DNA of 44,106 bases from an uncultured Gammaproteobacteria bacterium (GTDB taxonomy: Bacteria > Patescibacteriota > Patescibacteriia > UBA9934): contig CAZCLT010000001.1 of assembly GCA_964499655.1 (NCBI GenBank), positions 1,647-45,752 on the forward strand, read 5' to 3'. Of the stretch, positions 1,493 through 23,612 are shown in pieces. How positions within the stretch are numbered: the stretch's first letter is position 1; every line of letters begins with the position of its first letter. Position numbers and translations under genes: made by a program. The notes beneath the pieces are model-generated. The model saw only the letters and a program-made list of their open reading frames with translations, searched no databases and was not told where the DNA came from.

Positions 1493-3088
1493 CTACCAAG
1501 TTGGATTACAATCAGTTTCTGCCCCATATTTATCCTTGCACTCCATGATACCGTAGTAAGAATCGTTATTGGAACAATTAGCCACCGCCGAATCGGAAGC
1601 GGCGTATACCAGAGCAGCGGCGGCAATACACGGTCCGGTAGCTAGACCCATCGACGCTAAAGCAGCAGTTCCACAAAATGTCAGCAGGGCCGTACCAGTC
1701 AACATTTCTTTTTCAATAGTGAAGACCTGACAACTGCCGCCAGGTGGCGCTAACCCACACGGATCAGCTTCGCAAACCGTGTTGAGCAACGGGAAGGCTT
1801 CGCTAGTTTGTAAATCATCAACTTCGTTGTTGTAAATCAGACTATTCCCAGCCAACTTGGCCCAGACGTTGTCATACATGCGACAACCCATGCTGTCGCC
1901 AGCATAGGCGTCAGACAACAACAAGACACAATCCAAATTCGTGCTGTCCGAATTCGCAGGATAAACCAACTCAGCGCAGGAATCACCCACCGTGACTTCA
2001 GTCAGCGCGGTATCGTAAAACTCGCAGTAATAATGATTGGCATCGGTTGGGAACGGATCGGTGTAAAGTAAATTACCGCAGGTTGTCCGCGTCGGTGGCG
2101 GTGCATCAGGATTGGGCTGATAATCAATTAAAGCATCGTTATAAGAATCGCTACAGCTAACGCAAGCATAGCCGCCCGGCGCCGAAGCCACGCTCATGCA
2201 AGTAGCGACACCATCACTACAAGTTGAGTAAATGCACGATTGACCGGCGGTGATCGTTGACCCAGCCGCCGCTGAATCTTCAGGAATCGAAGCGACGACA
2301 CCGGTATTGCCACAAGTCGTGTCGGCACCAGTTTGCGTGATGATGACCCCAGCCGCGGCCATCGTTTCGCAAGTCGAATTAGGATCAAGGTAAACCGTTT
2401 GACGAATCTGCGGCGTGCGTAATTTATTCAGCGTTACCAAATCCGGGTCGATCAAATTCAAAATGGCGTAAGTGAACATCAATAAAATCATGCCGATGAC
2501 CGCGTTCTTAATGCGCTCCTTCGCTTTGGTAATTTTACCGCCATCGCCACGGGCCAAAGCATATTGCAAACCACCGATCATGATCATCACAATAGCTACA
2601 AGCGCGGCCGCCGGAATCAACCAGTTGTAAACCACGTTGATGTAGGTTGGAAAATCAGCTGCCTCCGTCATGTCCGTATTAGTGGTCAAATCACGAATCG
2701 CCACGCCCAAAGTGACCGGTGGCTGGGGCGCGTAACAGAAACCCTCACCAGGAATACACGATGTCTTCTGACCGCCCCAATCATATTCTAGTCCCGCGGT
2801 GTCTAGAGCCGACGAAACCTGAGTCGTGCATTCGTAGCTCGTCCAACACAACTGATTATTTTCCGGCCGTGAAGTTTCTTGCGTGTCGGTGTAACAGCCA
2901 AGCAAAGAATCACCGCTCTCTTTGCAACTGGTCTGGCAAGCCGCGACCGTTTCCTTAGAACCAATTTCCACTGCCCCGCCAGTTGTTCGGCAAAAACAGT
3001 CACAAGCCGTGCTGGTTGATGTTTGGGCCCAAACCGCCGACGGAACCAACAGTAAAACAAATGAAAAAATAATAACCAGACGTTTCAT
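1493..3088 (-). CDS. Large secreted Cys-rich protein with a central TrbC/VirB2-like (T4SS-pilin-type) two-TM module
   Basis: Signal peptide MKRLVIIFSFVLLLVPSAVWA and 30 Cys by my count. The core VYNWLIPAAALVAIVMIMIGG...AKERIKNAVIGMILLMFTYAILNLI resembles the T4SS-pilin domain seen in CPR proteins. There is a further C-terminal hydrophobic segment. I moved the start from the track's 3106 to ATG 3088, which has a TACAAT box 8 nt upstream. Confidence 0.6.
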   Translation of the reverse strand: MKRLVIIFSFVLLLVPSAVWAQTSTSTACDCFCRTTGGAVEIGSKETVAACQTSCKESGDSLLGCYTDTQETSRPENNQLCWTSYECTTQVSSALDTAGLEYDWGGQKTSCIPGEGFCYAPQPPVTLGVAIRDLTTNTDMTEAADFPTYINVVYNWLIPAAALVAIVMIMIGGLQYALARGDGGKITKAKERIKNAVIGMILLMFTYAILNLIDPDLVTLNKLRTPQIRQTVYLDPNSTCETMAAAGVIITQTGADTTCGNTGVVASIPEDSAAAGSTITAGQSCIYSTCSDGVATCMSVASAPGGYACVSCSDSYNDALIDYQPNPDAPPPTRTTCGNLLYTDPFPTDANHYYCEFYDTALTEVTVGDSCAELVYPANSDSTNLDCVLLLSDAYAGDSMGCRMYDNVWAKLAGNSLIYNNEVDDLQTSEAFPLLNTVCEADPCGLAPPGGSCQVFTIEKEMLTGTALLTFCGTAALASMGLATGPCIAAAALVYAASDSAVANCSNNDSYYGIMECKDKYGAETDCNPTW

Positions 3089-3096
3089 ACGCAGAT

Positions 3097-3102
3097 ATTG
3101 TA
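3097..3102 (-). promoter_or_regulatory. -10 box (TACAAT) 8 nt upstream of the Cys-rich protein ATG; leaderless-type
   Basis: Reverse complement of 3089-3102 is TACAATATCTGCGT followed by ATG. No SD. Confidence 0.4.
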
Positions 3103-3119
3103 TCATCGTGCTATGATGA

Positions 3120-3148
3120 TTGACGAACAGTCCGCCTTTTGATAGCCT
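3120..3148 (+). promoter_or_regulatory. Candidate promoter of secG (TTGACG-17-TAGCCT)
   Basis: TTGACG 3120-3125, 17-nt spacer, TAGCCT 3143-3148. The ATG follows 9 nt later with no SD. Confidence 0.4.
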
Positions 3149-3157
3149 AGTGCCACT

Positions 3158-3373
3158 ATGATTTTGAACATCGTTCAGTTGATTTTAGCTGGTTTACTCA
3201 GCGCGATGGTCCTATTACAAGCCCGTGGAGCGGGTTTAGGCTCAGCTTTTGGCGGCAGTGGTAACGTCTTCCGTACCCGCCGCGGTTTAGAAAAAAAATT
3301 ACAGGTCGGCACCGTTGTTATCGCTATTCTTTTCTTCGGGACCGCGCTAGCGAACGTTTTATTTGATTTGTAA
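3158..3373 (+). CDS. secG: Preprotein translocase subunit SecG
   Basis: 71 aa with two TM segments and the Gly-rich loop LLQARGAGLGSAFGGSGNVFRTRRG typical of SecG. Its stop overlaps the next start (TAATG). Confidence 0.8.
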   Translation: MILNIVQLILAGLLSAMVLLQARGAGLGSAFGGSGNVFRTRRGLEKKLQVGTVVIAILFFGTALANVLFDL

Positions 3374-5184
3374 TGTCGATCAAAAACAAATTTTCAAAAT
3401 TCTTCGGCCCTGGTCGCGCGAAACGCGCCGACTCGTCTCTTGCCGTCTCGCAGGTAATGTCCGCGCGTAAAATGCGCAAATTGCCGACGATCACCCAGCT
3501 ACGCCACTTACCAGAACTGCTTTCGCCGATTGAAAAAAAGATCGCCTTGGTCGGTCTTGGCTTACTCTTAATCGGAGCCGTACTACTTGGTACCCGGTTA
3601 TGGAACGCTGGTCGCAACATTCTGCCCGACGTTGGCGGTGAATACACCGAAGGCTTGGTCGGCGCGCCACAATTAATCAACCCGATCTATGCCATTAGTT
3701 CAGACGTGGACATGGATTTAGAACGGTTGATCTTTAGCGGCCTAATGAAATACGACCCAGCTCAAGGCCTAATCACTGATTTGGCGGAGAGTTACCAAAT
3801 TTCGGATGATCACAAAATTTATACTTTCACTCTGCGCGAAGACGCCCGTTGGCAAGACGGTTCCCCGGTTCTAGCCAGCGATGTCCTATTCACGATCAGC
3901 GCAATTCAAAACCGCGAGTACCGTTCGCCGTTGTTCGTGAGCTGGAGCGGCGTGCAAGCCGAACAGATCGATGATCGAACAATTCGCTTTACTTTATCCG
4001 AACCGTTCGCGCCTTTCCTCTCGCTCAACACAGTTGGTCTGTTGCCAGCGCATATTTGGCAAGATGTTAATCCAGCCAACGCTCAGCTAACCGAGCTCAA
4101 TAAAAAGCCAATTGGTTCTGGCCCATACGAATTCGAAAAACTCGCCAAAGACGCTAAAGGAACCATCAAATCTTACACTCTAAAGCGAAATGCCGATTAT
4201 TACGGCGGCACTGCCTACATCGAACGCCTGCACTTCAAATTCTACGGCGACAATAACGAAGCTTTAGTTGCGCTTAAAAACCGCCAAGTGGAAGGTTTGG
4301 GATTTGTGCCACTCGACGAAACTACTTCGCTGAGCCACGACCGTGATTTACAGATCATCTACCCGTCATTGCCCCAGTACACAGCCATTTTCTTCAATTC
4401 CAAACGCCAACCAAACCTCACTGACGCGCTAGTGCGTGAAGCTTTGACTTTGGCCACGGACAAAAACACTATCATCCAAAAAGCACTTTACGGACACGGC
4501 CAACCGATTAACTCATTCATTTTGCCAGGCGCGATTGGTTACTACCCAGAAATAAAAACAATCAATTTTGATTTAGCTGGCGCTCAAGCCAAATTAGACG
4601 CGGCCGGCTGGACAGTGCCTGAGGGTGGCACCATCCGCAAAAAGGGAGAGGCTTCACTCTCTTTAGAATTAGTGACTTTAGATGCTTCAGAATTGGTAGC
4701 CGCGGCCAATGAACTGCGATCGCAGTGGGCACAGGCCGGCGTGGAACTAAACGTCAAAATTGTACCAGCTGCCCAATTCCAAAACGAAATTCTAAAAAAT
4801 CGATCGTACGATTTAGTACTTTCGGGCGAACTTTACGGCATCGATACCGATCCCTACGCCTTCTGGCATTCTTCGCAGGCTACCTACCCCGGACTCAACC
4901 TGGCGCAATACGCCAATCGCAAATCCGATGAAGCGATTGAGAAGGCTCGCTCAACCACCAACACCGATGAACGCGCCACGGCCTACAAAGAACTGCAAGA
5001 TCAGGTTGGTGAATCGCTTTCGGCTATCTTCCTCTATCAACCAAACTATTCGTACGTCATTACCAAAAAGGTACAGAACGTGAACATCACACAGGTTGTG
5101 GTGCCGGCCGACCGTTTCGCTAATGTGAACACTTGGTACCTGAAGACTAAAAAAGTGTTCAAAACCTCAGAAACCGCCCAGTAA
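3373..5184 (+). CDS. ABC transporter substrate-binding protein, family 5 (peptide/nickel type), membrane-anchored
   Basis: 603 aa with an N-terminal TM anchor. The body resembles OppA/DppA-type SBPs (YTFTLREDARWQDGSPV..., GSGPYEF). Confidence 0.75.
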   Translation: MSIKNKFSKFFGPGRAKRADSSLAVSQVMSARKMRKLPTITQLRHLPELLSPIEKKIALVGLGLLLIGAVLLGTRLWNAGRNILPDVGGEYTEGLVGAPQLINPIYAISSDVDMDLERLIFSGLMKYDPAQGLITDLAESYQISDDHKIYTFTLREDARWQDGSPVLASDVLFTISAIQNREYRSPLFVSWSGVQAEQIDDRTIRFTLSEPFAPFLSLNTVGLLPAHIWQDVNPANAQLTELNKKPIGSGPYEFEKLAKDAKGTIKSYTLKRNADYYGGTAYIERLHFKFYGDNNEALVALKNRQVEGLGFVPLDETTSLSHDRDLQIIYPSLPQYTAIFFNSKRQPNLTDALVREALTLATDKNTIIQKALYGHGQPINSFILPGAIGYYPEIKTINFDLAGAQAKLDAAGWTVPEGGTIRKKGEASLSLELVTLDASELVAAANELRSQWAQAGVELNVKIVPAAQFQNEILKNRSYDLVLSGELYGIDTDPYAFWHSSQATYPGLNLAQYANRKSDEAIEKARSTTNTDERATAYKELQDQVGESLSAIFLYQPNYSYVITKKVQNVNITQVVVPADRFANVNTWYLKTKKVFKTSETAQ

Positions 5185-5213
5185 TTGACGGTTAGGCCCA
5201 GAAATGCTATTCT
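5185..5213 (+). promoter_or_regulatory. Candidate promoter for tRNA-Leu (TTGACG-17-TATTCT)
   Basis: TTGACG 5185-5190, 17-nt spacer, TATTCT 5208-5213, about 36 nt before the tRNA 5' end. Confidence 0.3.
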
Positions 5214-5249
5214 TCGGCCAATTGAAAGGCGACAAACTTGGGTATATTT

Positions 5250-5334
5250 GGGCAAGTGGCGGAATTGGTATACGCGTACGTCTCAGAAGCGTATGTCGAA
5301 AGACTTGAGGGTTCGAGTCCCTCCTTGCCCACCA
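5250..5334 (+). tRNA. tRNA-Leu (anticodon CAG), type II with long variable arm and encoded CCA
   Basis: Folded by hand. Acceptor GGGCAAG/CTTGCCC. Anticodon stem TACGT/GCGTA with loop CTCAGAA. Variable arm GTC-GAAA-GAC. T arm GAGGG-TTCGAGT-CCCTC. Discriminator A plus CCA. Confidence 0.92.
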
Positions 5335-5514
5335 CCGAGCTTAGCTCGGTTGTTCCAAGAAGACCAAAGCTAAGCTTTGGTAAGACAACAATGCAGAATA
5401 GCTGAGCGAGGTGACAGGCCAGCTGAGCTGGTCCAGAGATGACGAATCGATTTTTCTTGAATTAATTTCGAGGCACTACGATTATCCATCTCAGTTAAGT
5501 AATTTTTTGTTTTT

Positions 5515-7293
5515 ATGGTAGAGAAAAAACCGTTTAAGCGACCAGCTCCTGGTCGCCGTCCGTTCTTTAAGAAACCCGGCGCTCCTGCTGGCGCCCCGAT
5601 GCCCGTCAAATCAACGACCGTACTCGGCCCGGCCGATGATTGTGTTCGCGTCATCGTGCTCGGTGGCTTGGAGGAAGTTGGTCGCAACTGCACGCTGATC
5701 GAATACAAGAACGACATCATCATCGTAGACTTGGGTTTGCAGTTCCCAGACGAAGACATGCCCGGCGTGGATTACATCATCCCGAACATGACTTACCTCA
5801 AAGGTAAGGAAAAAAATGTTCGTGGCGTGATTATTACTCACGGCCACTATGATCACATCGGCGCTATTCCGCACACCGTGCCGTACATTGGCAATCCCCC
5901 AGTTTACGCACTACCCGTGGCCGCTGGGATCATCAAAAAGCGTCAGGATGATTTTCGCAGCGCGCACGTGAACGTGAAGGTGATCACCATCGATTCCGAG
6001 TTGCAACTCGGCGCCTTTAAAGTTCATTTCTTCCACATCAACCACAACATCCCCGATTCGGCCGGCATCATTATCGAAACGCCGCACGGCACTATTTGCC
6101 ACACCGGTGACTGGAAGTTTGATTATCACCCAGTGGGCGCCAAACCAGCTGATTTGCACAAAATCGCTCGCGTTGGTGAAAAAGGCGTCACCTTGCTGAT
6201 GGGCGACTCAACGAACGCTGATCGCCATGGTCATCAAACGTCGGAGGCGGTGATCGGTGAAGAGCTGAAAAACGTTTTGGAAAAGGCACCAGGACGCGTA
6301 ATCATCGGGACTTTCGCTTCCCTGCTTTCACGCGTCAAACAAATTCTGGAAATCTCGGAAATGCTTGGCCGCAAAGTGGCGCTCGATGGCTATTCGATGA
6401 AAACCAACGTCGAAATCGCCAAAGAGCTAGGCTTCATTCACATCAGCCCCAAATCTTTAATCCCGATTGAATCGGTCAACGAATATCCAGACAACAAAGT
6501 CACGATTGTCTGTACTGGTGCTCAGGGTGAAAAGCAGGCGGCGCTCAATCGCATTGCCACCGATGATCACCGCTCAGTGCGTGTAAAACGCGGCGATACC
6601 GTGATTTTCTCGAGCTCGGTCATTCCAGGCAACGAAGCTTCGGTGCAACGCCTGAAGGATATTTTCTACCGCAAACGCGCCAAAGTAATCCACAAAGACA
6701 TCATGGATGTGCACGCCGGTGGTCATGCCAAAAAGGAAGATATCAAGCTGATGCTCACTCTCTTCAAGCCAAAATTCTACATGCCGATTGAAGGCAACCA
6801 CTTCTTACTGCGTGAAAACGCGGAAGTGGCCTACTCGATGGGCTGGAACGAAAGCAACACTTTCGTGGCTGATAACGGCCAGGTGGTGGAACTACGAAAT
6901 GGCGTGGCGAAACTGACCGAAACTAAAGTCCTGACCGACTACGTCTTCGTTGACGGTCTCGGCGTGGGCGATGTTTCGCAGGTGGTGCTGCGCGATCGCG
7001 TGGCTTTGGCTGATGACGGTATCGTCGTGGTGATCACTCAAGTGGAAAAGAAAACTGGCAAGCTTTACGGCGAGCCAGATGTCGTGAGTCGCGGCTTTGT
7101 GCAGATGCGCGACAACAAGGAATTGATGACTGAAACTCGCGCCTTGATCGCCAAAATCGTCGTCGGCCATGATCTGTCCACGCCGGTTGATCCGGAGACG
7201 ATCAAAGCCGCCATCCGCGACGAAGTCGGTAAACTCCTCTTCAAAAAGACGGAGCGACGCCCAATGGTTCTGCCAGTGTTGATGGAAGTCTAA
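5515..7293 (+). CDS. rnj: Ribonuclease J (metallo-beta-lactamase / beta-CASP family)
   Basis: 592 aa with HGHYDHIGAIP (the HxHxDH motif) and beta-CASP-like middle and C-terminal domains. There is a basic N-terminal extension. Confidence 0.88.
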   Translation: MVEKKPFKRPAPGRRPFFKKPGAPAGAPMPVKSTTVLGPADDCVRVIVLGGLEEVGRNCTLIEYKNDIIIVDLGLQFPDEDMPGVDYIIPNMTYLKGKEKNVRGVIITHGHYDHIGAIPHTVPYIGNPPVYALPVAAGIIKKRQDDFRSAHVNVKVITIDSELQLGAFKVHFFHINHNIPDSAGIIIETPHGTICHTGDWKFDYHPVGAKPADLHKIARVGEKGVTLLMGDSTNADRHGHQTSEAVIGEELKNVLEKAPGRVIIGTFASLLSRVKQILEISEMLGRKVALDGYSMKTNVEIAKELGFIHISPKSLIPIESVNEYPDNKVTIVCTGAQGEKQAALNRIATDDHRSVRVKRGDTVIFSSSVIPGNEASVQRLKDIFYRKRAKVIHKDIMDVHAGGHAKKEDIKLMLTLFKPKFYMPIEGNHFLLRENAEVAYSMGWNESNTFVADNGQVVELRNGVAKLTETKVLTDYVFVDGLGVGDVSQVVLRDRVALADDGIVVVITQVEKKTGKLYGEPDVVSRGFVQMRDNKELMTETRALIAKIVVGHDLSTPVDPETIKAAIRDEVGKLLFKKTERRPMVLPVLMEV

Positions 7294-7306
7294 TTACCAA
7301 ACAAAC

Positions 7307-7333
7307 ACGAGGGACAAAATCCCTCGTTTTGTT
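7307..7333 (+). terminator. Intrinsic terminator after rnj
   Basis: ACGAGGGA-caaaa-TCCCTCGT followed by TTTTGTT. Confidence 0.8.
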
Positions 7334-7338
7334 ATACT
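7330..7338 (+). promoter_or_regulatory. Extended -10 (TGtTATACT) 7 nt upstream of the trpS ATG; leaderless-type
   Basis: TATACT at 7333-7338, ATG at 7346, no SD between them. Confidence 0.45.
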
Positions 7339-7345
7339 GACGGAT

Positions 7346-8326
7346 ATGCGTGTTTTAACCGGCATCCAACCTACTAACATCCTGCACCTCGGCAACTTGT
7401 TCGGCGCGCTTAAGCCAGCTGTGGCTATGCAAGGCGAGCATGAATTGCACATGATGATCGCTGATTATCATGCGATTACCGTGCCGCAGGATCCAGACAC
7501 ACTCCACGACAACATTTTGTTCGTCGCGGCCGCTTATTTGGCCGCCGGCATTGATCCGAAAAAGACGATCATTTTCCAGCAGTCGCAAGTGCCGGCCCAC
7601 ACCGAACTGGCCTGGATCATGCAGACGCAAACCCGGATCGGCGAAGCGGAGCGAATGACCCAGTTCAAGGATAAATCCGGTGGCAAAGCCGAAAAAGTTT
7701 CCGTTGGCTTGTTCACCTACCCAATGCTGATGGCCGCGGATATTTTACTTTACGATACCCAAGCCGTACCGGTGGGCGCCGACCAGAAACAACACGTCGA
7801 ATTAACTCGCGATCTAGCCGAACGCTTCAACAAAGAATACGGTGCCACCTTCACCCTGCCCGAGCCGCTGATTAGAGCGCATGGCGCCCGAATCAAATCG
7901 CTAACCGAGCCGGAAAAAAAGATGAGCAAGAGCTCGCCCAATGCCAAAAGCTATCTTTCAATCATGGACGACGCTGATCTGATTGCCAAGAAAATTCGCT
8001 CAGCCGTAACCGATTCCGAGCCGGGCATTACCGTGGATGATCGTCGCGAGGGACTCAAAAATCTGTTGACCTTGATGAGTCTGGTCACTGGCGAAACCCT
8101 GCCAGATATCGCCGCTCGGTACGCTACTGGCGGCATGAAAAACCTCAAAGACGATTTGGCTGAAGCGGTAATCATTTACCTCAAACCGCTCCAAGCCGAA
8201 ATCACCGGTTGGCTCGAAAATCAGGCCGAACTCAAGGAAATCATCAAAATCGGCTCTGGGGCCGCCGCCGAAATTGCCGACGCTAAAATGGCCCTAATCC
8301 GCTCTAGAATCGGGGTTAAAATCTAG
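7346..8326 (+). CDS. trpS: Tryptophan--tRNA ligase
   Basis: 326 aa. N-terminus GIQPTNILHLGNLFGA (HIGH-type), KMSKS present, class Ic length. Confidence 0.92.
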   Translation: MRVLTGIQPTNILHLGNLFGALKPAVAMQGEHELHMMIADYHAITVPQDPDTLHDNILFVAAAYLAAGIDPKKTIIFQQSQVPAHTELAWIMQTQTRIGEAERMTQFKDKSGGKAEKVSVGLFTYPMLMAADILLYDTQAVPVGADQKQHVELTRDLAERFNKEYGATFTLPEPLIRAHGARIKSLTEPEKKMSKSSPNAKSYLSIMDDADLIAKKIRSAVTDSEPGITVDDRREGLKNLLTLMSLVTGETLPDIAARYATGGMKNLKDDLAEAVIIYLKPLQAEITGWLENQAELKEIIKIGSGAAAEIADAKMALIRSRIGVKI

Positions 8327-8332
8327 TTTGCA

Positions 8333-8361
8333 TTGACATAATTGAAAAAGTCACATACTAT
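8333..8361 (+). promoter_or_regulatory. Near-consensus sigma70-type promoter (TTGACA-17-TACTAT) driving the high-GC cassette
   Basis: TTGACA 8333-8338, exactly 17 nt of spacer, TACTAT 8356-8361. The composition shifts to high G+C at 8362. Confidence 0.5.
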
Positions 8362-8440
8362 CCCGGCGTCACCCACTTTGGGGCGACCGGCAATTTTGCC
8401 GTCCTGTTCAACAGTCCGCAGTCCTGATCGGAGTCCACCA

Positions 8441-9325
8441 GTGTCCCTTTCGTCCGAAACCGCAATCCGCCCCGCCACCACCACCTCGTCCGCCACCGGT
8501 CGTCCCCCGACCACGGACTCCTCGCCCGGCTACAAGCCCGAGGTCAACGCCGCGCTCATGCGGCGCCGCGACAAGCTCGTCGAGATCATCCGCAACGACC
8601 TCAAGGAATGCTCGTCCCGGTCCATCCAGGGTAGCCTCTACCTGCTGCTCATCGCGGTCACCATGCGCTTCACCAACACCCTCAAGCGCCTGGCCGAGTT
8701 CCGCGACCTGTACGGCCTGATCAAGGGCTGCGAGATCGACAGCGTCAAGAAGTTCGCCACGGCCCTGCCGACGGACGTGACGCTCGACGAGGTGATCGAC
8801 GACGACACCAAGTCGGCCATCGAGCTGGCCAAGATGCTCGGCAAGGTCGCCCAGCTGCGCTCCCTGGTCGCGAAGACCGACGCGGGCAACCTCGAGTTCT
8901 ACGACCGGCTCCGGGGCGAGATCGAAGCGGGCAAGATCAACTCCTTCGGGGCGCTCTGCGACCGGCTGCCGACGTTCATCGTCGACCTGGACGACGACAT
9001 GCGCCGCGCCCGCAACCACTTCCGCGATGAGCGCGATGCCCAACGCACCGTGATCATCAACTTCCAGACCAAGGCGAACGCCGACGTGAAGCAGGACATC
9101 AGCTTCACCACCTTCGGCACCGTCAAGAACGCCATCCTGCGCGTGCTGCGTCAGATGATCGGTGACTTCGCCGAGCCGGCGCTGATCCCCGCCTGGCAGC
9201 AGCTGCGCAAGAAGTGCAACAACAACGAGTACACCAGCATCGGCTCCTTCCTCGCCGACGTGCCCGAGCAGTTGCGCCACAAGGCCAACCAGCTGACCGC
9301 CGCGCCGCCGATGGACAACAAGTAG
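8441..9325 (+). CDS. Orphan protein (294 aa) encoded in compositionally foreign, G/C-ending codons; function unknown
   Basis: The GTG start at 8441 follows GGAG (8430-8433) by 7 nt. The G/C third-position bias begins at this codon and is absent from 8342-8440, so the track's TTG start at 8342 is unlikely. The protein has an N-terminal S/T/P-rich tail and then a predicted helical body. I recognise no motif. Confidence 0.6.
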   Translation: MSLSSETAIRPATTTSSATGRPPTTDSSPGYKPEVNAALMRRRDKLVEIIRNDLKECSSRSIQGSLYLLLIAVTMRFTNTLKRLAEFRDLYGLIKGCEIDSVKKFATALPTDVTLDEVIDDDTKSAIELAKMLGKVAQLRSLVAKTDAGNLEFYDRLRGEIEAGKINSFGALCDRLPTFIVDLDDDMRRARNHFRDERDAQRTVIINFQTKANADVKQDISFTTFGTVKNAILRVLRQMIGDFAEPALIPAWQQLRKKCNNNEYTSIGSFLADVPEQLRHKANQLTAAPPMDNK

Positions 9326-9334
9326 CGCCTCTTT

Positions 9335-9380
9335 CCCCTGTCCTCCACCGTAACCTGGTGGCCACGGGGGCTCTTTTTTT
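9335..9380 (+). terminator. Intrinsic terminator of the high-GC cassette
   Basis: CCCCTGT...CCACC-gtaacct-GGTGG...ACGGGGG forms an interrupted hairpin, followed by CTCTTTTTTT. Confidence 0.6.
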
Positions 9381-9391
9381 ATCAATCACGA

Positions 9392-9420
9392 TTGACATTT
9401 CAGTGATTTTTTGTTAATAT
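9392..9420 (+). promoter_or_regulatory. Promoter of rnpB (TTGACA-17-TAATAT)
   Basis: TTGACA 9392-9397, 17-nt spacer, TAATAT 9415-9420. The RNase P RNA P1 helix starts about 10 nt downstream. Confidence 0.6.
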
Positions 9421-9430
9421 GCCCACGCTT

Positions 9431-9822
9431 AGAAAACTAGATGACTGCTGGATATTAGCCTTTACGGGTGGGTATTCAGAGGAAAGTCCGAACACCCTTG
9501 AGCCAGCAATGGCTCATGACAAAGAACATCGCTAACGGCGATCGAGTGATATCTATAAACTTAGGGAAAGTGCCACAGAGACAATACTAGTTCTCCGTCT
9601 CTCGAGAATGGAGAATGAAAAGTGAAAAGTGTCGCGGTGTCCGTAGCCAGCTCAGCTGGCACCGGGCTACGCGGCTCGCTCCATGGCAACATGGAAGCGT
9701 GGTAAACCCGTTCTGGTGCAAGAGCAAATTTGGTAGCTCGCATGAGTCGGCTAGCAATAGCCGAACTAGAGAGATAGTCGTCACCTCGCAAGAGGATACA
9801 AAATTCGGCTTACCGGTTTTCT
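9431..9822 (+). ncRNA. rnpB: RNase P RNA, bacterial type A
   Basis: Universal motifs are present: GAGGAAAGTCCG (9479-9490), GGGAAAGTGCCACAGAGA, GGTAAACCC and ACAAAATTCGGCTTAC (9798-9813). P1 pairs AGAAAAC (9431-9437) with GTTTTCT (9816-9822). Confidence 0.88.
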
Positions 9823-9829
9823 GAGCAAC

Positions 9830-11356: not shown

Positions 11357-12469
11357 ATGAAAGTTGCTCTGGTCCATGACCACCTGACCCAATCCGGAGG
11401 CGCCGAGCGCGTACTGGAAGCTTTGCAATCGCTCTATCCGAACGCCCCGACGTTTACTTTGCTTTACGACAAAAAAGCCATGACCGAGTTCAACCACCGG
11501 GACATTCGGCCATCTTTTTTGCAGAAATTTCCTTTGTCCCTTTCTCGCCCTCGCTGGTACTTGCCGCTGATGCCCACAGCCACCGAAAGCCATGATCTAT
11601 CGGGATACGACGTGATCATCTCGAGTTCCAGCGCTTTCTCTAAAGGCATTATTCCGCCAACTGATGCGATTCATCTCTGCTACTGCCACACGCCGACCAG
11701 ATATCTTTGGAGCGACACGCACAGCTATGTGGAAGAAATCTCAGCGCCCGGTTTTATCAAAAAATTACTCCCGCCGCTCCTCTCACGCCTGCGTCTGTGG
11801 GACAAACTGGCCGCTGATCGCGTTGACCATTTCATCGCTAACTCAGAAACGGTCGCGCGACGCATCAGTAAATATTATCGCCGAGAAAGTGATGTGATTT
11901 ACCCACCGGTCGACATCGATCACTTTTCGATTTCTGATAAACCGAAAGAATTTTATTTGATTGGTGGTCGGCTAGTTCCCTACAAGCGCTACGACGTGGT
12001 CGTGGAAGCCTTCAACAAGCTTGGATTACCACTCGTCGTTTTTGGCAGTGGCCCGCAAGAGAAAAAATTACGCGCGATGGCTCGACCGAACGTCAAATTC
12101 GTTGGCCGCGTTTCTAACGAAGAACGGGCGCGACTTTTTTCCGAAGCAATCGCTTTCATTCATCCGCAAGAAGAAGATTTCGGCATCACACCTGTGGAAG
12201 CGATGGCGGCCGGCACGCCGGTCATTGCCCTGCGCCAAGGTGGCGCTATTGAGACGGTCATTGATGGCGTGACGGGCGTACTTTTTGATGAGCAATCCTG
12301 GCAAGAAATTGCTAACACGGTGTTACATTTTGATCGAACCAAGTTTGATTCCCAAGTGATCAGAAAGCACGCACAGCAATTCTCGCTTCAGAATTTCCAC
12401 CAAAAAATCAGCGAATATGTTAACAAAAAATGGGAAATTCAACGTCGAAAAATAATTGGTCAGTTGTAA
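11357..12469 (+). CDS. Glycosyltransferase, GT4 family
   Basis: 370 aa. MKVALVHDHLTQSGGAERV at the N-terminus and the C-terminal EDFGITPVEAMAAGTPVIA...GGAIETVIDGVTG (EX7E-type motif). Confidence 0.8.
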   Translation: MKVALVHDHLTQSGGAERVLEALQSLYPNAPTFTLLYDKKAMTEFNHRDIRPSFLQKFPLSLSRPRWYLPLMPTATESHDLSGYDVIISSSSAFSKGIIPPTDAIHLCYCHTPTRYLWSDTHSYVEEISAPGFIKKLLPPLLSRLRLWDKLAADRVDHFIANSETVARRISKYYRRESDVIYPPVDIDHFSISDKPKEFYLIGGRLVPYKRYDVVVEAFNKLGLPLVVFGSGPQEKKLRAMARPNVKFVGRVSNEERARLFSEAIAFIHPQEEDFGITPVEAMAAGTPVIALRQGGAIETVIDGVTGVLFDEQSWQEIANTVLHFDRTKFDSQVIRKHAQQFSLQNFHQKISEYVNKKWEIQRRKIIGQL

Positions 12470-12470
12470 T

Positions 12471-13691
12471 GTGGAAATCGGGATCGACATCCGACACCTG
12501 GCAACGGCGAGCCCTTCTGGGGTCGGTCTGTATACGATTGCGGTGATTGAGGCGATGGCGAAATTGGCGCCAACCGATAATTTTTGGTTGTTCGCCGCCG
12601 GTACGGAATCGACGATGGACCGATTGCCGGAGTTCAAGTCAGACAACATTCGAGTGGTAAAAAAGAATTGGCCGAATAAAATTTTGTCGTTGGGTTTATT
12701 ATCTGGACGAATTACGCTCGAAGACCTGATGCCCGTTAAACTTGATGCCTGGTGGTTTCCCAATTTGAACATCATCAACACCAAACTTCCCTACTTGATC
12801 ACAGCCCACGACCTATCGTTCAAGTTTTTTCCGAAATTCCTGACCGTCAAGACTAAGTCTTGGCACAAAGTTGTCGCGCCAACCAAACTTTATACCAACG
12901 CAAAAAAAATTCTCGCCGTTTCGCAAAGCACCAAGCGCGATCTGATGTTTTCGATGAACCTACCCTCTGATCAAATCGCCGTCACGCCGCTCGGTTACGA
13001 TCCCATCACTTACCAACCCCGCCGCCAGCCGAGTGACGGTCAATTCCGAGCAGCGCATGGAATAAACTTCCCATACTTTTTGTCGCTGTGCACGCTCGAG
13101 CCGCGAAAAAATTTAATTTCGGTCGTCGAGGGTTACACAACTTGGCGCCAACACCTCAAAAGCGCCCCCTCCGTCTCCCCCATAAATGGGGGAGTGTTTC
13201 CCGAATTAACTAATTCAAGATCCACCCCTCCAGACATGGAGGGGCCGGGGGAGGCTCCCCATCTCGTGATCGCTGGCGGCGTCGGCTGGAAATCTGGTGC
13301 CTTGCATCGAGCAATCCAATCTTCGTATTTCCGTGATCAAATCCACCTCACCGGTTACGTACCCGAAAAGCACAAAGGAGCCCTGTACCGAGGTGCTAGC
13401 GCCTTCATCTTCCCCTCGTTTTACGAAGGTTTTGGCCTGCCGGTGCTAGAAGCAATGGCTTGCGGCACACCCGTAATCGCCTCGTTTACCAGTTCTCTGC
13501 CCGAAATCGTCGGCCAGGCCGGCCTGCTCGTGGACCCCTACCGCCCGAGCGACATTACTCAGGCCTTAACCCTCGTGAGCGACCCTCAAACCGCTGAACT
13601 CCTACGCTCAAGAGGGCTCGAACAAGCCAAAAATTTCTCCTGGACTAAAACCGCCCAGTTAACCCTCGAAGCCGTGCGCCAAATGTGCTAA
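12471..13691 (+). CDS. Glycosyltransferase, GT4 family, carrying an in-frame palindromic insertion
   Basis: GTG 12471 gives MEIGIDIRHL, typical of GT4. The track's TTG start at 12456 overlaps the previous gene. C-terminal motif FPSFYEGFGLPVLEAMACGTPVIAS. Confidence 0.75.
   Translation: MEIGIDIRHLATASPSGVGLYTIAVIEAMAKLAPTDNFWLFAAGTESTMDRLPEFKSDNIRVVKKNWPNKILSLGLLSGRITLEDLMPVKLDAWWFPNLNIINTKLPYLITAHDLSFKFFPKFLTVKTKSWHKVVAPTKLYTNAKKILAVSQSTKRDLMFSMNLPSDQIAVTPLGYDPITYQPRRQPSDGQFRAAHGINFPYFLSLCTLEPRKNLISVVEGYTTWRQHLKSAPSVSPINGGVFPELTNSRSTPPDMEGPGEAPHLVIAGGVGWKSGALHRAIQSSYFRDQIHLTGYVPEKHKGALYRGASAFIFPSFYEGFGLPVLEAMACGTPVIASFTSSLPEIVGQAGLLVDPYRPSDITQALTLVSDPQTAELLRSRGLEQAKNFSWTKTAQLTLEAVRQMC
13165..13262. 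repeat. Cluster of GC-rich palindromes embedded in frame in the GT4 gene
   Basis: CTCCCCCA-taaa-TGGGGGAG (13175-13194), CCCCTCCA-gaca-TGGAGGGG (13225-13244) and GGGGAGgCTCCCC (13248-13260). Together they are translated as SAPSVSPINGGVFPELTNSRSTPPDMEGPGEAP. Confidence 0.65.
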
Positions 13692-21502: not shown

Positions 21503-22048
21503 TCAACGTGATAATTGTTTCAAGGCGGCGCGGATGCGGTCTTCAGTTGATTCGGCGACGACATCGCGGAGGACGTCGGCCACGTCACGACGGGCGTAGC
21601 CGAGGCCAACCAACGCATCGATCGCCTCTTCGTCGACTGAATTGGGTTCATCAGACTCAGTGACGAGTACGCCTTTGAGCTCTAGAATAATTTTTTGCGC
21701 CGTCTTTTTGCCCACGCCAGGAATGCCGGTTAAGAAATCAACATCACCGGCCAGGATTTTTTCGATCACGCTATCATGCGCCGCGTTGCTCAAAATCTTG
21801 GCCGCCAGCTTAGGGCCAACGCCGTTAACTTCGATCATCGTCTCGAAGAGCTCCAACGCTTCCAGGCTAGCGAAGCCGTACAACTCACGACGATCTTCGC
21901 GCACCAAATCAAAGGTGTAAATGGCAAGCGACTGACCAATTTGCCCATCAAAACCCACGCTATAAACCTTATAGCCAACGCCTCCTACCTTAAGGATTAG
22001 CCAGTCAGGACGCCGCGCAATCACTTCGCCCTCTAGGTAACCGATCAT
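21503..22048 (-). CDS. ruvA: Holliday junction branch-migration complex subunit RuvA
   Basis: MIGYLEGEVIARRPDWLILKVGGVGYKVY at the N-terminus, HhH motifs (GVGPKLA, IPGVGKKTAQKI) and 181 aa. Confidence 0.88.
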   Translation of the reverse strand: MIGYLEGEVIARRPDWLILKVGGVGYKVYSVGFDGQIGQSLAIYTFDLVREDRRELYGFASLEALELFETMIEVNGVGPKLAAKILSNAAHDSVIEKILAGDVDFLTGIPGVGKKTAQKIILELKGVLVTESDEPNSVDEEAIDALVGLGYARRDVADVLRDVVAESTEDRIRAALKQLSR

Positions 22049-23277
22049 AGAACCCCATTTTCCCAGGTAAGCCGCGCTTCGTCAAAGAGGCGTTGGGCTT
22101 TAGTGAGGCGTTTTTGAAGTTCTTTGTTTTGCAGATTATTGGGTACGGAAAGCGACGGATCCTTTACCAGTTCTTCTAGCGCCTCAACGATCTCCTTACG
22201 GCCACGACCAAATGGCACCTTTAAAATTTTAAAAACTTCGTCGGAAGAAAGGCCGGCCGCTTTGAGCAGATTCTTGAATTCCCTCTTCTGCGCCAAGCGA
22301 ACTTCTTCACGGCGTTTCGCGCGACGTGCCGGGGCCGCCAATTCTTCACTGCGCCAAAAGTTAAAGATGGCCGTCAGATCGACAGCAAACCGACCGTACT
22401 GCTGGGACAACGAACCAACCGCCGAATCTAAAAAGACGCAGGCCAATAAAACGTCCATGGCTTCGTTCGCGTCGAGCTTGGCCTTGGTGGCTCGAGCGAT
22501 GAGTAGCTCGAACTTGGCCACATCAGGCCCCGTCTTGAAGAATTCGAGCACGTCGATGTGATTCTCCATCGCGAAAGCGAGCATTTCGCCATCTCGCGGC
22601 TCGAGCTTAAGGTGCTGTTCGATGGCCGTCCGCGCCGATCGGAATTCAGGACGAAGCGCGGCCCGGGCGTGCCCGAAGTAATGTGTTTCAATACCGTATG
22701 TTTTGAAAAATTCAGCGAGTAGTTCCCCACCAGCCAAATCGGAATGACTGAGCTCAAATGCTCGATACAATTTCAAATACAATGCTTGCTCGGCCGCGCT
22801 AGCCGTCACCGAGAGACGGCGCTTGTGCTGAGCAAAGCCTTCCATCGCGCCTTTAGAGTTACTCGCCGCATCGAAAGCGATCAAAGTTGGTTTAGCGATG
22901 TCGTGGAGCAAGGCGAAGGCTTGAAGCGTGGCCGCATTAGCCCGAATCGTCTCTTCTAGTTTGATGATTTCTTCACGCCAGTAGCGCTCGCCGACTAACT
23001 CGTCAATGGCCAACAAACTTTGGCCATCGAGTACAGCAAATAACCCTCCCAGGATCCGCTCCACATGAAAACGCACGAAAATACCCTCACAATGCCAGGG
23101 TGCCGACTGTGGACAATGGTCTAATTTCTGAAGTTCGGGCGCTAATTTTTGAGCCTCAACCAGCGCCTCCCGAGCTTGATTCTGTCGCTCTGCCGTCAAA
23201 ACGTCTTCATCCAGCCAACGTAAAAAAACCTTCGATTCCCCTTTGTTTTTAAAGATTTGGCCTCCATTTCCCCACAT
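22045..23277 (-). CDS. HD-domain protein (metal-dependent phosphohydrolase superfamily), function unknown
   Basis: H...LLHDIAKP motif. I placed the start at ATG 23277 (MWGNGGQIF...). The track's start at 23388 is a GTG that reads through a promoter-like region. Confidence 0.5.
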   Translation of the reverse strand: MWGNGGQIFKNKGESKVFLRWLDEDVLTAERQNQAREALVEAQKLAPELQKLDHCPQSAPWHCEGIFVRFHVERILGGLFAVLDGQSLLAIDELVGERYWREEIIKLEETIRANAATLQAFALLHDIAKPTLIAFDAASNSKGAMEGFAQHKRRLSVTASAAEQALYLKLYRAFELSHSDLAGGELLAEFFKTYGIETHYFGHARAALRPEFRSARTAIEQHLKLEPRDGEMLAFAMENHIDVLEFFKTGPDVAKFELLIARATKAKLDANEAMDVLLACVFLDSAVGSLSQQYGRFAVDLTAIFNFWRSEELAAPARRAKRREEVRLAQKREFKNLLKAAGLSSDEVFKILKVPFGRGRKEIVEALEELVKDPSLSVPNNLQNKELQKRLTKAQRLFDEARLTWENGVL

Positions 23278-23292
23278 ATTGTTAACTAGCAA

Positions 23293-23321
23293 TTGACAGA
23301 AATATACTTTTCTGCTATATT
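23293..23321 (+). promoter_or_regulatory. Near-consensus promoter TTGACA-17-TATATT on the plus strand
   Basis: TTGACA 23293-23298, 17-nt spacer, TATATT 23316-23321. No plus-strand CDS follows. Confidence 0.45.
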
Positions 23322-23327
23322 GACCGT

Positions 23328-23612
23328 CTGTAAGAGTTCCTTCCAACCCGGAGTATCGGCCATGGGCGGCGGATAATCTAGCGATCACCTAAAGGGGACA
23401 AAACGCCTATGTCGGCGCCCCATAAATCTGCGATCGAGCGAACAAGAAGCTTTGATCCATCGATCGTACGATAACCATCGACCAACCCGGTCGGTGCACT
23501 GCCCCGAAGCAAGAAAGATGCCAACTTCTACTCCGACTACAGGATATACCACCTGAACTACCCGTTCACCTTGACCGGTCCCTAGAGCGCCCTCGCTCTT
23601 GGCACCGGTCTC
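23328..23612 (+). ncRNA. Candidate unannotated RNA of about 285 nt (orphan transcription unit); class unknown
   Basis: It is bracketed by the promoter above and a plus-oriented intrinsic terminator. The longest plus-strand ATG ORF is 21 codons. The segment contains several local hairpins. Confidence 0.35.

Follow-up and report, generated by a model that had tools for sequence, protein, structure and literature searches.

How does a gene whose protein has an ordinary, moderate-G+C amino-acid composition come to be written almost exclusively in G- and C-ending codons? The question is raised by an open reading frame (ORF), here called gene X, within a 44,106-nucleotide (nt) stretch of contig CAZCLT010000001.1 (the window). 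An earlier note had read the disagreement between composition and codon choice as a sign of a recoded protein, and had offered an ordinary horizontally transferred gene as the fallback. Here we demonstrate that X is of natural origin, that its gene order is conserved, that it diverges together with the adjacent trpS gene, that its synonymous sites are constrained and that it avoids A/T tracts in a context-dependent manner. The explanation we favour, with moderate confidence, is that X is a native, vertically inherited orphan gene of Uhrbacteria whose G/C-ending codons are held in place by purifying selection at the nucleotide level, with the likeliest cause lying in the messenger RNA (mRNA).

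Positions 8441 to 9325, plus strand: coding sequence of gene X, 885 nt, 294 amino acids (aa), GTG start, TAG stop

Every one of the 69 Lys, Asn, Ile, Phe and Tyr codons of X carries G or C at the third base (19/19 AAG, 14/14 AAC, 19/19 ATC, 12/12 TTC and 5/5 TAC). The counts in the earlier note, including 19 Lys and 14 Asn, were thus exact, and the Cys (4/4 TGC) and His (2/2 CAC) codons obey the same rule. With host codon frequencies as the null, the joint probability of five all-G/C amino-acid families is ~3e-22. The overall G+C content (GC) of X is 0.652, with 0.583, 0.417 and 0.956 at first, second and third codon positions (GC1, GC2 and GC3), and the three-base periodicity is correspondingly strong (GC3 0.96, GC2 0.42). 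For the 36 other credible genes of the window, GC3 is 0.575 ± 0.042 with a maximum of 0.64, which places X ~9 standard deviations (SD) away. The mismatch with the protein is also real, as GC1 and GC2 deviate by no more than 0.5 SD from the host means (0.56 ± 0.04 and 0.40 ± 0.04) and Lys, Asn, Ile and Phe occur at host frequencies, with only Arg and Asp enriched.

The bias does not follow the general codon trend of the host. The G-ending fraction of Lys, Glu and Gln codons is 0.91 in X versus 0.31 ± 0.09 in host genes (maximum 0.44), and the majority codons of the host (AAA 68 %, GAA 73 %, CAA 58 %, GAT 63 %) are replaced in X by AAG (100 %), GAG (80 %), CAG (90 %) and GAC (92 %). X therefore opposes the host majority for Lys, Glu, Gln and Asp, and agrees with it for pyrimidine-ending two-fold codons (NNY) and for Ala, Gly, Arg and Thr. 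The G+C-rich block runs from the −10 box of the X promoter to the terminator and has a GC of 0.65 within a genome of 0.51 (41-51 % GC across the genomes that carry X); the flanks are ordinary (trpS 3′ end 0.46-0.54, intergenic DNA 0.46, rnpB 0.49). A 325-aa antisense ORF at 8408-9385 across X was rejected as a gene: with a GC1 of 0.92 it would specify a protein composed of only ~10 kinds of amino acid, and it has no promoter or ribosome-binding site. It stays open because X contains no TTA, CTA or TCA codons, and is an automatic shadow of such a gene.

X lies between two conserved anchors.

Positions 7346 to 8326, plus strand: trpS, tryptophanyl-tRNA synthetase, the upstream anchor; Pfam tRNA-synt_1b in homologous loci; GC3 0.63
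Positions 9429 to 9828, plus strand: rnpB, RNase P RNA, the downstream anchor; Rfam RF00010, bacterial type A, 166.9 bits

Family searches, word-indexed and by exhaustive hidden Markov model (HMM) search, covered 1.84 billion representative proteins and recovered a family of seven members (P0001-P0007) plus the protein of locus L010. The relatives of X comprise one identical copy, proteins at about 66, 58, 53 and 32 % identity, and two fragments. No homologue outside the lineage was found among these 1.84 billion proteins, and scans of GTDB genomes, metagenome contigs and viral contigs with patterns from the X profile gave no match. Together with its host-like GC1 and GC2, this sets X apart from a normal gene of a high-GC genome, as the earlier note had suspected. 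The closest TrpS relatives belong to metagenome-assembled genomes (MAGs) of Uhrbacteria, which identifies the host, from sequence, as Candidatus Uhrbacteria (Patescibacteria, candidate phyla radiation).

Six natural homologues, 32-66 % identical to X, share the slot between trpS and the RNase P RNA gene, one of them known from its first codons only. An identical 3,019-bp contig is present in SRR12113420, and the other homologues come from different JGI/SRA samples. The order trpS, X, rnpB, sugar transferase holds in every contig that is long enough, and the arrangement of trpS, X slot and rnpB is seen in L001, L008, L010-L014 and L017. Promoter, leader, Shine-Dalgarno sequence, a GTG or TTG start followed by 'MSLS', and terminator are common to all relatives whose contigs reach them. 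GC3 is 0.86-0.96 in the five complete homologues and 0.45-0.65 in their adjoining genes. No part of the slot is repeated elsewhere in the window, and there are no flanking repeats or mobility genes. The contigs available for polymorphism were identical or one base apart. Across the lineages, identity of the X protein to that of the window falls in step with identity of TrpS.

L006: TrpS identity to the window 93 %, X identity 65 %
L001: TrpS identity to the window 89 %, X identity 57 %
L089: TrpS identity to the window 81 %, X identity 32 %

This co-divergence of the two sequences indicates that X has been inherited vertically.

Several family members have features of their own. The start of the L001 homologue (P0003) in the JGI annotation, an ATG at 2708, is probably too far downstream; an in-frame GTG with a conserved GGAG lies 81 nt upstream of it (2627-2707), and the TGRPPTTD tail is encoded between the two. 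In L007, positions 1003-1150 hold the X terminator followed by a second copy of an X-type promoter (TTGACT-17-TACTATCCCGCC) with no rnpB there, and a new GTG-started ORF of ordinary GC3 (~0.56) then runs until the contig ends; the second promoter may be a duplicated promoter or a local rearrangement. P0007 (167 aa) and P0005 (172 aa) are fragments from the exhaustive search. The C-terminal half of P0007 departs from the family, which would suggest a chimeric or frameshifted contig, and a member of alignment A3, probably P0007, matches oxaloacetate decarboxylase alpha-subunit models (NCBIfam, E 3e-7). The contigs of L009 and L014, which carry an Uhrbacteria-type trpS, X leader and rnpB, sit in MAGs labelled 'uncultured Gammaproteobacteria', probably through a binning error.

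We then used trpS as a neutral-rate control for X. Synonymous (dS) and nonsynonymous (dN) divergence of trpS is 1.25-1.36 and 0.05-0.09; for X the values are 0.32-0.46 and 0.29-0.39 (window against L001: trpS dN 0.086 and dS 1.36, X dN 0.39 and dS 0.46). The protein of X thus changes at ~5 times the rate of TrpS, and synonymous change in X is slower by a factor of three to four. In six host genes compared between the window and L001, 33 % of two-fold sites differ for Lys/Glu/Gln (n = 320) and 41 % for NNY codons (n = 611), so that the two-fold sites of the host are nearly saturated. For a neutral gene starting at 100 % G/C, the level expected by now is ~0.42 (Lys/Glu/Gln) and 0.72 (NNY). The two-fold sites of X stand at 0.95-1.0 G/C in both lineages and differ at 1/19 and 2/41 positions (3/60 in all).

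Four-fold sites of X have not been frozen in the same way: 23-50 % of them differ, with changes almost exclusively between C and G. Third-position composition is alike across the lineages of X (C 0.53-0.61, G 0.32-0.40, A 0.02-0.06, T 0.03-0.08), while that of the hosts carrying it varies widely. The TTG codon for Leu is avoided in all X lineages, so synonymous first positions are affected too. The log odds ratio of X against neighbouring genes is 1.8-2.9 in the well-established members. Because two-fold sites are almost frozen in X while those of the host are near saturation, X is not merely a one-off import that has yet to ameliorate, and the sequence comparison indicates natural, long-term selection at its synonymous sites.

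What this selection acts on is suggested by the neighbours of each third base. The longest A/T run in the X coding sequence is 3 nt. Runs of at least 4 nt are absent from four of the five homologues (ORFs of ~885 nt) and occur once in the fifth, giving a pooled count of 1 against 14.6 ± 3.1 expected from permutation of synonymous codons (P < 5e-4); for runs of at least 3 nt, 17 were observed and 35.3 ± 4.2 expected. The succession of an A/T-ending codon and an A/T-starting codon is correspondingly depleted in the X homologues (odds ratio 0.38, P = 5e-6). No such avoidance is seen in host genes, where the odds ratio is 1.2 and the run ratios are 0.91-1.15. Pooled over the five homologues, A/T-ending codons are used for 0/86 Ile, 0/58 Phe, 0/27 Tyr, 2/73 Lys and 2/52 Asn residues, and their share reaches 21-30 % for Gly, Arg, Asp and Glu. 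These data are most simply described as selection in the X unit that disfavours A/T tracts and, as a consequence, A/T wherever a position is free.

Two other ways of accounting for an unusual coding sequence were considered and rejected. A structured non-coding or dual-function RNA is contradicted by the lack of covariation, of unusual stability and of any Rfam match, and by the strong codon periodicity. A target of a diversity-generating retroelement would come with a template and variable repeat pair, and the window contains none; no reverse transcriptase was found among the 30 larger window ORFs scanned against Pfam.

The same enrichment extends to deeper relatives of the slot. Uhrbacteria-like loci at a greater distance, with TrpS 58-69 % identical and a genome G+C of 0.41-0.51, also carry a G+C-enriched ORF behind trpS, and its GC3 exceeds that of trpS by 0.25-0.51. 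A high-GC relative, L098, is listed with them.

L012: slot ORF GC3 0.93, trpS GC3 0.42
L091: slot ORF GC3 0.88, trpS GC3 0.52
L011: slot ORF GC3 0.81, trpS GC3 0.44
L010: slot ORF GC3 0.79, trpS GC3 0.54
L090: slot ORF GC3 0.77, trpS GC3 0.36
L013: slot ORF GC3 0.73, trpS GC3 0.40
L098 (high-GC relative): slot ORF GC3 0.76, trpS GC3 0.84

An Rfam check places rnpB after the slot in L010-L013. Remote homology to X is found for the proteins of L010 and L013 (hhalign probability 73-82 %, E ~1e-5, colinear over ~135 columns). The slot proteins of L011, L012, L090 and L091 have no demonstrable homology to X, a loss of signal that is expected because X changes fast. As the slot ORF of L098 does not rise above its genome, the G+C content of slot ORFs is constant at 0.59-0.67 across genomes that range from 0.41 to 0.64.

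Some of these slots differ in content. The slot ORF of L012 (5127-6053; GC3 0.93 in a genome of 41-44 % GC) contains a near-perfect tandem duplication of ~50 aa (KIFHMAIEIEMTLGDLIDFAHL...ADPGAS, twice). Downstream of trpS in L016 lies a block of ~4 kb (5017-8978) with a GC of 0.56-0.64, as against 0.46-0.49 upstream, which includes a 481-aa AAA-ATPase-like ORF, and L014 has 2.7 kb at a GC of 0.63 in this position (3093-5768) with several ORFs, one of them for a membrane protein. The slot downstream of trpS may therefore accept other G+C-rich genes as well.

X is a transcription unit separate from trpS and rnpB, with the following signals.

Positions 8333 to 8361, plus strand: sigma-70-type promoter of X, TTGACA, 17-nt spacer, TACTAT, then G+C-rich CCCGGCG
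Positions 8368 to 8440, plus strand: 5′ leader of X, with two hairpins and the Shine-Dalgarno sequence
Positions 8368 to 8387, plus strand: leader hairpin 1, GTCACCC...GGGGCGAC, at or next to the predicted 5′ end of the transcript
Positions 8388 to 8401, plus strand: leader hairpin 2, CGGCA...TGCCG
Positions 8430 to 8433, plus strand: Shine-Dalgarno sequence GGAG, 7 nt upstream of the GTG
Positions 9335 to 9380, plus strand: intrinsic terminator of X, a nested G+C-rich hairpin followed by a T-run

The promoter matches the consensus at 10/12 positions, and just four sites in the 44-kb window match at 10/12 or better. Its −35 box, spacing and TA(C/T)TATCCCG are kept in L001, L006, L009 and L089; for L007, where the −10 box is the first element on the contig, the visible part reads TACTATCCCG. 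Promoter prediction would place the transcript start at leader hairpin 1. The leader is much better conserved than trpS synonymous sites, with unchanged stems and variable loops across the window, L001, L006, L007, L009 and L089. Its motif was found at the X locus only among all loci fetched, and neither the leader nor the coding region matches an Rfam family. The terminator is kept in L001, L006, L007 and L089 with compensatory base-pair changes in the stem; a simple terminator scanner missed it because the stem is interrupted. When five transcripts were folded together with RNAalifold, only leader and terminator helices were retained.

The rnpB gene has a promoter of its own at 9392-9420 (TTGACA-17-TAATAT), which carries a TG extension and, behind the −10 box, a G+C-rich stretch. 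It is built much like the X promoter, and both are among the four best matches of the window.

These elements suggest how the favoured mRNA-level cause would operate. Selection would remove A/T at every synonymous position of X, including the choice of CTN over TTG for Leu, and would act most strongly where A/T already fills the first two positions of a codon; the few A/T endings tolerated would be placed where no A/T tract can form. RNase Y and RNase E cleave A/U-rich single-stranded regions, and 5′-terminal stem–loops and strong Shine-Dalgarno sequences stabilise bacterial mRNAs (PMC3997798; bioRxiv 10.1101/2023.03.12.532304; PMC5737220). X carries the hallmarks of stabilised messages in conserved form: hairpins where the transcript is predicted to begin, a GGAG 7 nt ahead of the start codon and a nested terminator. 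The near-consensus promoter, 5′ hairpins, strong Shine-Dalgarno sequence, A/U-tract-free coding region and terminator hairpin may act together, so that the message would offer few entry sites to RNase Y/E-type endonucleases or to the 5′ exonuclease RNase J, the gene for which sits two genes upstream. With few such entry sites the message would be long-lived and high-yielding, and we infer that mRNA stability, or expression, is the selected trait.

Several observations weigh against a stabilised, highly expressed message. The leader fold is not more stable than shuffled sequence (z = +0.3), the minimum free energy of the coding region is ordinary relative to synonymous permutations (z = −0.6), and the covariation term of the five-transcript RNAalifold alignment is unfavourable (+16 kcal/mol). 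With no conserved structure in the coding region, the RNA-level argument is one of composition and tract avoidance, and tract avoidance fits DNA-level and RNA-level causes alike. High transcription is deduced from the promoter match. All lineages start X with GTG or TTG, an unusual choice where selection is for maximal output, and highly expressed proteins are normally slow-evolving, whereas X is fast. The gradient of tolerated A/T endings (GGT, CGT, GAA and GAT occur, and none for Ile, Phe or Tyr) also fits the classical energy rule for codon–anticodon pairing under translational selection. The window holds no ribosomal-protein or elongation-factor gene by a Pfam scan of its 30 larger ORFs, and its supported tRNAs are Leu(CAG) and Ala(UGC) only, so the optimal codons of the host cannot be calibrated from it.

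A more pointed version of the mRNA-level reading, which we put forward only tentatively, is that base composition itself is the selected trait: a 'nuclease-proof' message kept free of A/U tracts throughout the Uhrbacteria radiation, independently of the tRNA pool and of genome G+C. If so, the X message would survive an A/U-specific ribonuclease while encoding a fast-evolving interaction protein, and the ribonuclease could belong to the decay machinery of the dormant cell itself, be a toxin, or come from a host or partner cell. For a more exotic variant, in which the message is decoded outside the producing cell in a high-GC host, nothing in the data speaks.

Among the rival explanations, those that bring the bias in from outside fare worst. 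A synthetic codon-optimised insert or an assembly chimera is what uniform G/C-ending codons over a moderate-GC amino-acid composition suggest at first impression. That impression is all that favours it: the same junctions occur in independent assemblies from different samples, and natural homologues at 32-66 % identity carry the same bias. These syntenic, diverged homologues in independent metagenomes refute both an insert and a chimera, leaving them next to no probability; of the 'recoded protein' in the earlier note, what stands is a codon choice driven independently of the protein, and engineering falls. Horizontal acquisition would derive X from a high-GC donor, such as an actinobacterial host, a high-GC Uhrbacterium or a G+C-rich mobile element, with incomplete amelioration or repeated re-introduction. 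GC3 is indeed actinobacteria-like, other G+C-rich DNA lies downstream of trpS in L016 (the 4-kb island) and L014 (the 2.7-kb slot), and high-GC Uhrbacteria exist (L015, L095, L098). However, GC1, GC2 and Lys/Asn/Ile/Phe frequencies are those of the host rather than of a donor, no homologue appears outside the clade among the 1.84e9 representative proteins, GTDB genomes and viral contigs, and the slot ORF of high-GC L098 is not above its genome. Synteny is kept with neither repeats nor mobility genes at the flanks, the expression signals (promoter, leader and terminator) have diverged along with the host, and two-fold sites remain at 0.95-1.0 G/C where decay would have brought them to 0.42-0.72. 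Horizontal acquisition is thus largely refuted and highly improbable, and the ordinary transfer offered as a fallback fails on the same co-divergence with trpS and the same G/C-held synonymous sites in a near-saturated host. Almost as doubtful is GC-biased gene conversion in a recombination hotspot, in which X would be exchanged between strains and repair would drive third positions to G/C, a process proposed for bacteria (PMC4450053). A fast-evolving gene between conserved homology arms (trpS and rnpB) is a suitable setting, the neutral interchange of C and G is as expected of a process that distinguishes only strong from weak pairs, and GC1/GC2 are raised in some lineages (L089 0.68/0.48, L010 0.66/0.50). 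The bacterial effect is a few per cent of GC3, though, and that in X is far above it. Conversion also takes no account of neighbouring bases, whereas in X the placing of A/T-ending codons keeps A/T runs from forming, and the adjacent trpS 3′ end has normal GC; sharp boundaries and context dependence thus argue against it. X identities track those of TrpS in the four lineages compared, with no sign of exchange.

The remaining two rivals invoke selection on X itself. Translational selection would make X one of the most highly translated genes, with G/C-ending codons read fastest or most accurately, or giving optimal codon–anticodon energy. The near-consensus promoter (10/12, one of four in 44 kb) and strong GGAG Shine-Dalgarno sequence are consistent with this, as is the apparent strength of selection, an ln odds ratio of ~2.8 that is within the range of the most biased genes of fast-growing species. 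As a rule the C-ending codon of an NNY pair is the cognate one, and A/T endings are largely confined to GGN, CGN and GAN, with none in Ile, Phe or Tyr, a tolerance pattern that the Grosjean-Fiers energy rule predicts. For Lys, Glu, Gln and Asp, however, X chooses against the majority codon of the host, and host genes show no variation along the G-ending axis (0.31 ± 0.09 against 0.91). Free exchange of C and G at four-fold sites speaks against an optimum set by particular tRNAs. X codon usage is constant across hosts of widely different third-position composition, and the avoidance of A/T runs across codon boundaries is not predicted by per-codon tRNA adaptation; on both counts, pure tRNA adaptation is disfavoured. 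An Akashi-type test found the bias no stronger at conserved residues (odds ratio 1.33, p = 0.34, at low power), and a non-ATG start and fast protein evolution (dN ~5 times that of trpS) fit poorly with maximal translation, so we consider translational selection unlikely, if still to be taken seriously. Selection against A/T tracts could alternatively act on the DNA, excluding spurious −10 or antisense promoters, intragenic terminators, AT-seeking nucleoid proteins or AT-targeting mobile elements. The absence of tracts holds on both strands and depends on context, TTG Leu is avoided, and the G+C-rich block is sharply bounded, all as this would require. Excluding every A/T run of 3-4 nt or longer, however, exceeds what −10 hexamers or T-runs would demand, no other window gene shows the avoidance despite facing the same DNA-level hazards, and the block coincides with the transcribed region including the leader, which points to the transcript. 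We regard a DNA-level cause as improbable.

The product of X is predicted to be a soluble, mildly basic, all-helical protein with no relatives among the families searched. An AlphaFold2 model has a mean predicted local distance difference test (pLDDT) score of 81.9 and a predicted template modelling score of 0.53, and is all-helical, as the earlier note had surmised, after a disordered tail.

Positions 8441 to 8536, plus strand: S/T/P-rich N-terminal tail, starting MSLS, with motif TGRPPTTD; pLDDT < 50 at residues 1-30

The sequence encoding this tail is C-rich and G-poor. The tail and the GTG/TTG start are kept in L001, L006, L007, L009 and L089, with the tail motif diverged in L089, the most distant of them. 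The acidic VDLDDDM and C-terminal KKCNNNEY segments singled out in the note are both present. The protein has no transmembrane segment or classical signal peptide and a pI of 6.5-9.4. Three weak internal repeats end in G-x-I-x-S-h-x-x-F-x-x-x-L-P (hhalign E 0.009-0.13). Sequence and profile searches of Pfam, PHROGs, NCBIfam, PADLOC and PDB returned nothing significant, and Foldseek found no fold match (best E 0.9 in PDB and 0.57 in BFVD); Rtt106_N and HTH_73 were rejected as domains, with scores far below threshold. Fast evolution and the lifestyle of these bacteria make a part in interaction with a host or partner organism plausible, and X may, speculatively, have such a role.

Features of X recall several known systems. 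The 5′ hairpins (at its predicted 5′ end), strong Shine-Dalgarno sequence and terminator hairpin are shared with stabilised mRNAs such as those with the Escherichia coli ompA and papA leaders, the Bacillus subtilis aprE leader, Stab-SD and hbs, in which these elements protect against entry of RNase E or RNase J (PMC3997798; hbs in PMC5737220). In the known cases the stabiliser is the leader, whereas in X the whole 885-nt coding region is also free of A/U tracts and has been kept so across a bacterial order. Ribosomal proteins, EF-Tu and glycolytic genes of fast-growing bacteria and yeast likewise combine a strong gene-specific bias, a slow synonymous rate, a strong promoter and C-ending NNY codons. 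Unlike these translationally selected genes, X has a bias against host majority codons that is independent of the host, equivalence of C and G, a cross-codon context effect, a fast protein and a GTG or TTG start. Like compositional genomic islands it is a sharply bounded block of atypical GC, but its synonymous positions alone are atypical, it is a single transcription unit, and it is syntenic, co-diverging and not ameliorating. Messages without ACA resist the MazF toxin endonuclease, and by analogy synonymous choice in X would remove nuclease recognition sequences so that the message survives; unlike ACA-less mRNAs, however, X lacks no single motif, A/T tracts of at least 4 nt being absent and nearly all of those of 3 nt. 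The constancy of slot-ORF G+C (0.59-0.67 in genomes from 0.41 to 0.64) resembles that of stable RNA genes (rRNA, tRNA and RNase P RNA), from which X differs in its three-base periodicity, conserved protein and lack of conserved RNA structure in the coding region. No comparable case was found described in the searchable literature, and a search for work on expression in Uhrbacteria, or on codon usage in these phyla, turned up nothing of relevance. Gene-specific selection at synonymous sites and mRNA stabilisation are kinds of phenomena already known; the constraint on X is unusually strong and long-lived.

The surrounding genes form a typical neighbourhood and encode RNase J, TrpS, RNase P RNA, a sugar transferase, three GT4 glycosyltransferases, and DUF4012 and FemAB proteins. 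The best promoter match of the window (TTGACA-17-TATATT, 11/12) lies at 23293-23321 on the plus strand, inside the 5′ part of a minus-strand gene (22045-23388); it faces a 227-nt gap before 23616, and a small plus-strand transcript may start there. ARAGORN reports a 90-nt 'tRNA-???' with a four-base anticodon (tgag) at 13530-13619 on the minus strand, within a glycosyltransferase gene (12456-13691); it is below the Rfam gathering threshold and probably a false positive. A 537-aa protein encoded at 1493-3106 on the minus strand, near an SBP_bac_5 solute-binding protein, has a type IV secretion system pilin domain (PF18895, E 1e-11), a noteworthy find in a putative episymbiont.

X resembles a product of synthetic codon optimisation or foreign DNA and yet is natural, and it thereby represents a false-positive class for screens that detect engineered or transferred sequence by composition. 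It also bears on why bacterial G+C exceeds mutational equilibrium, a long-standing question for which selection and biased gene conversion are the candidates. A unit held at a GC3 of 0.86-0.96 within genomes at 0.42-0.63 amounts to a natural experiment on G+C, and here the sharp boundaries, turnover between C and G and context-dependent tract avoidance point to selection on the sequence. To our knowledge, bacteria of the candidate phyla radiation cannot be cultured and most of their abundant proteins are uncharacterised. As a probably important gene that is, judging from its promoter, strongly transcribed, and whose product has no fold match and is confined to one lineage, X offers a lead into the biology of these uncultured bacteria.

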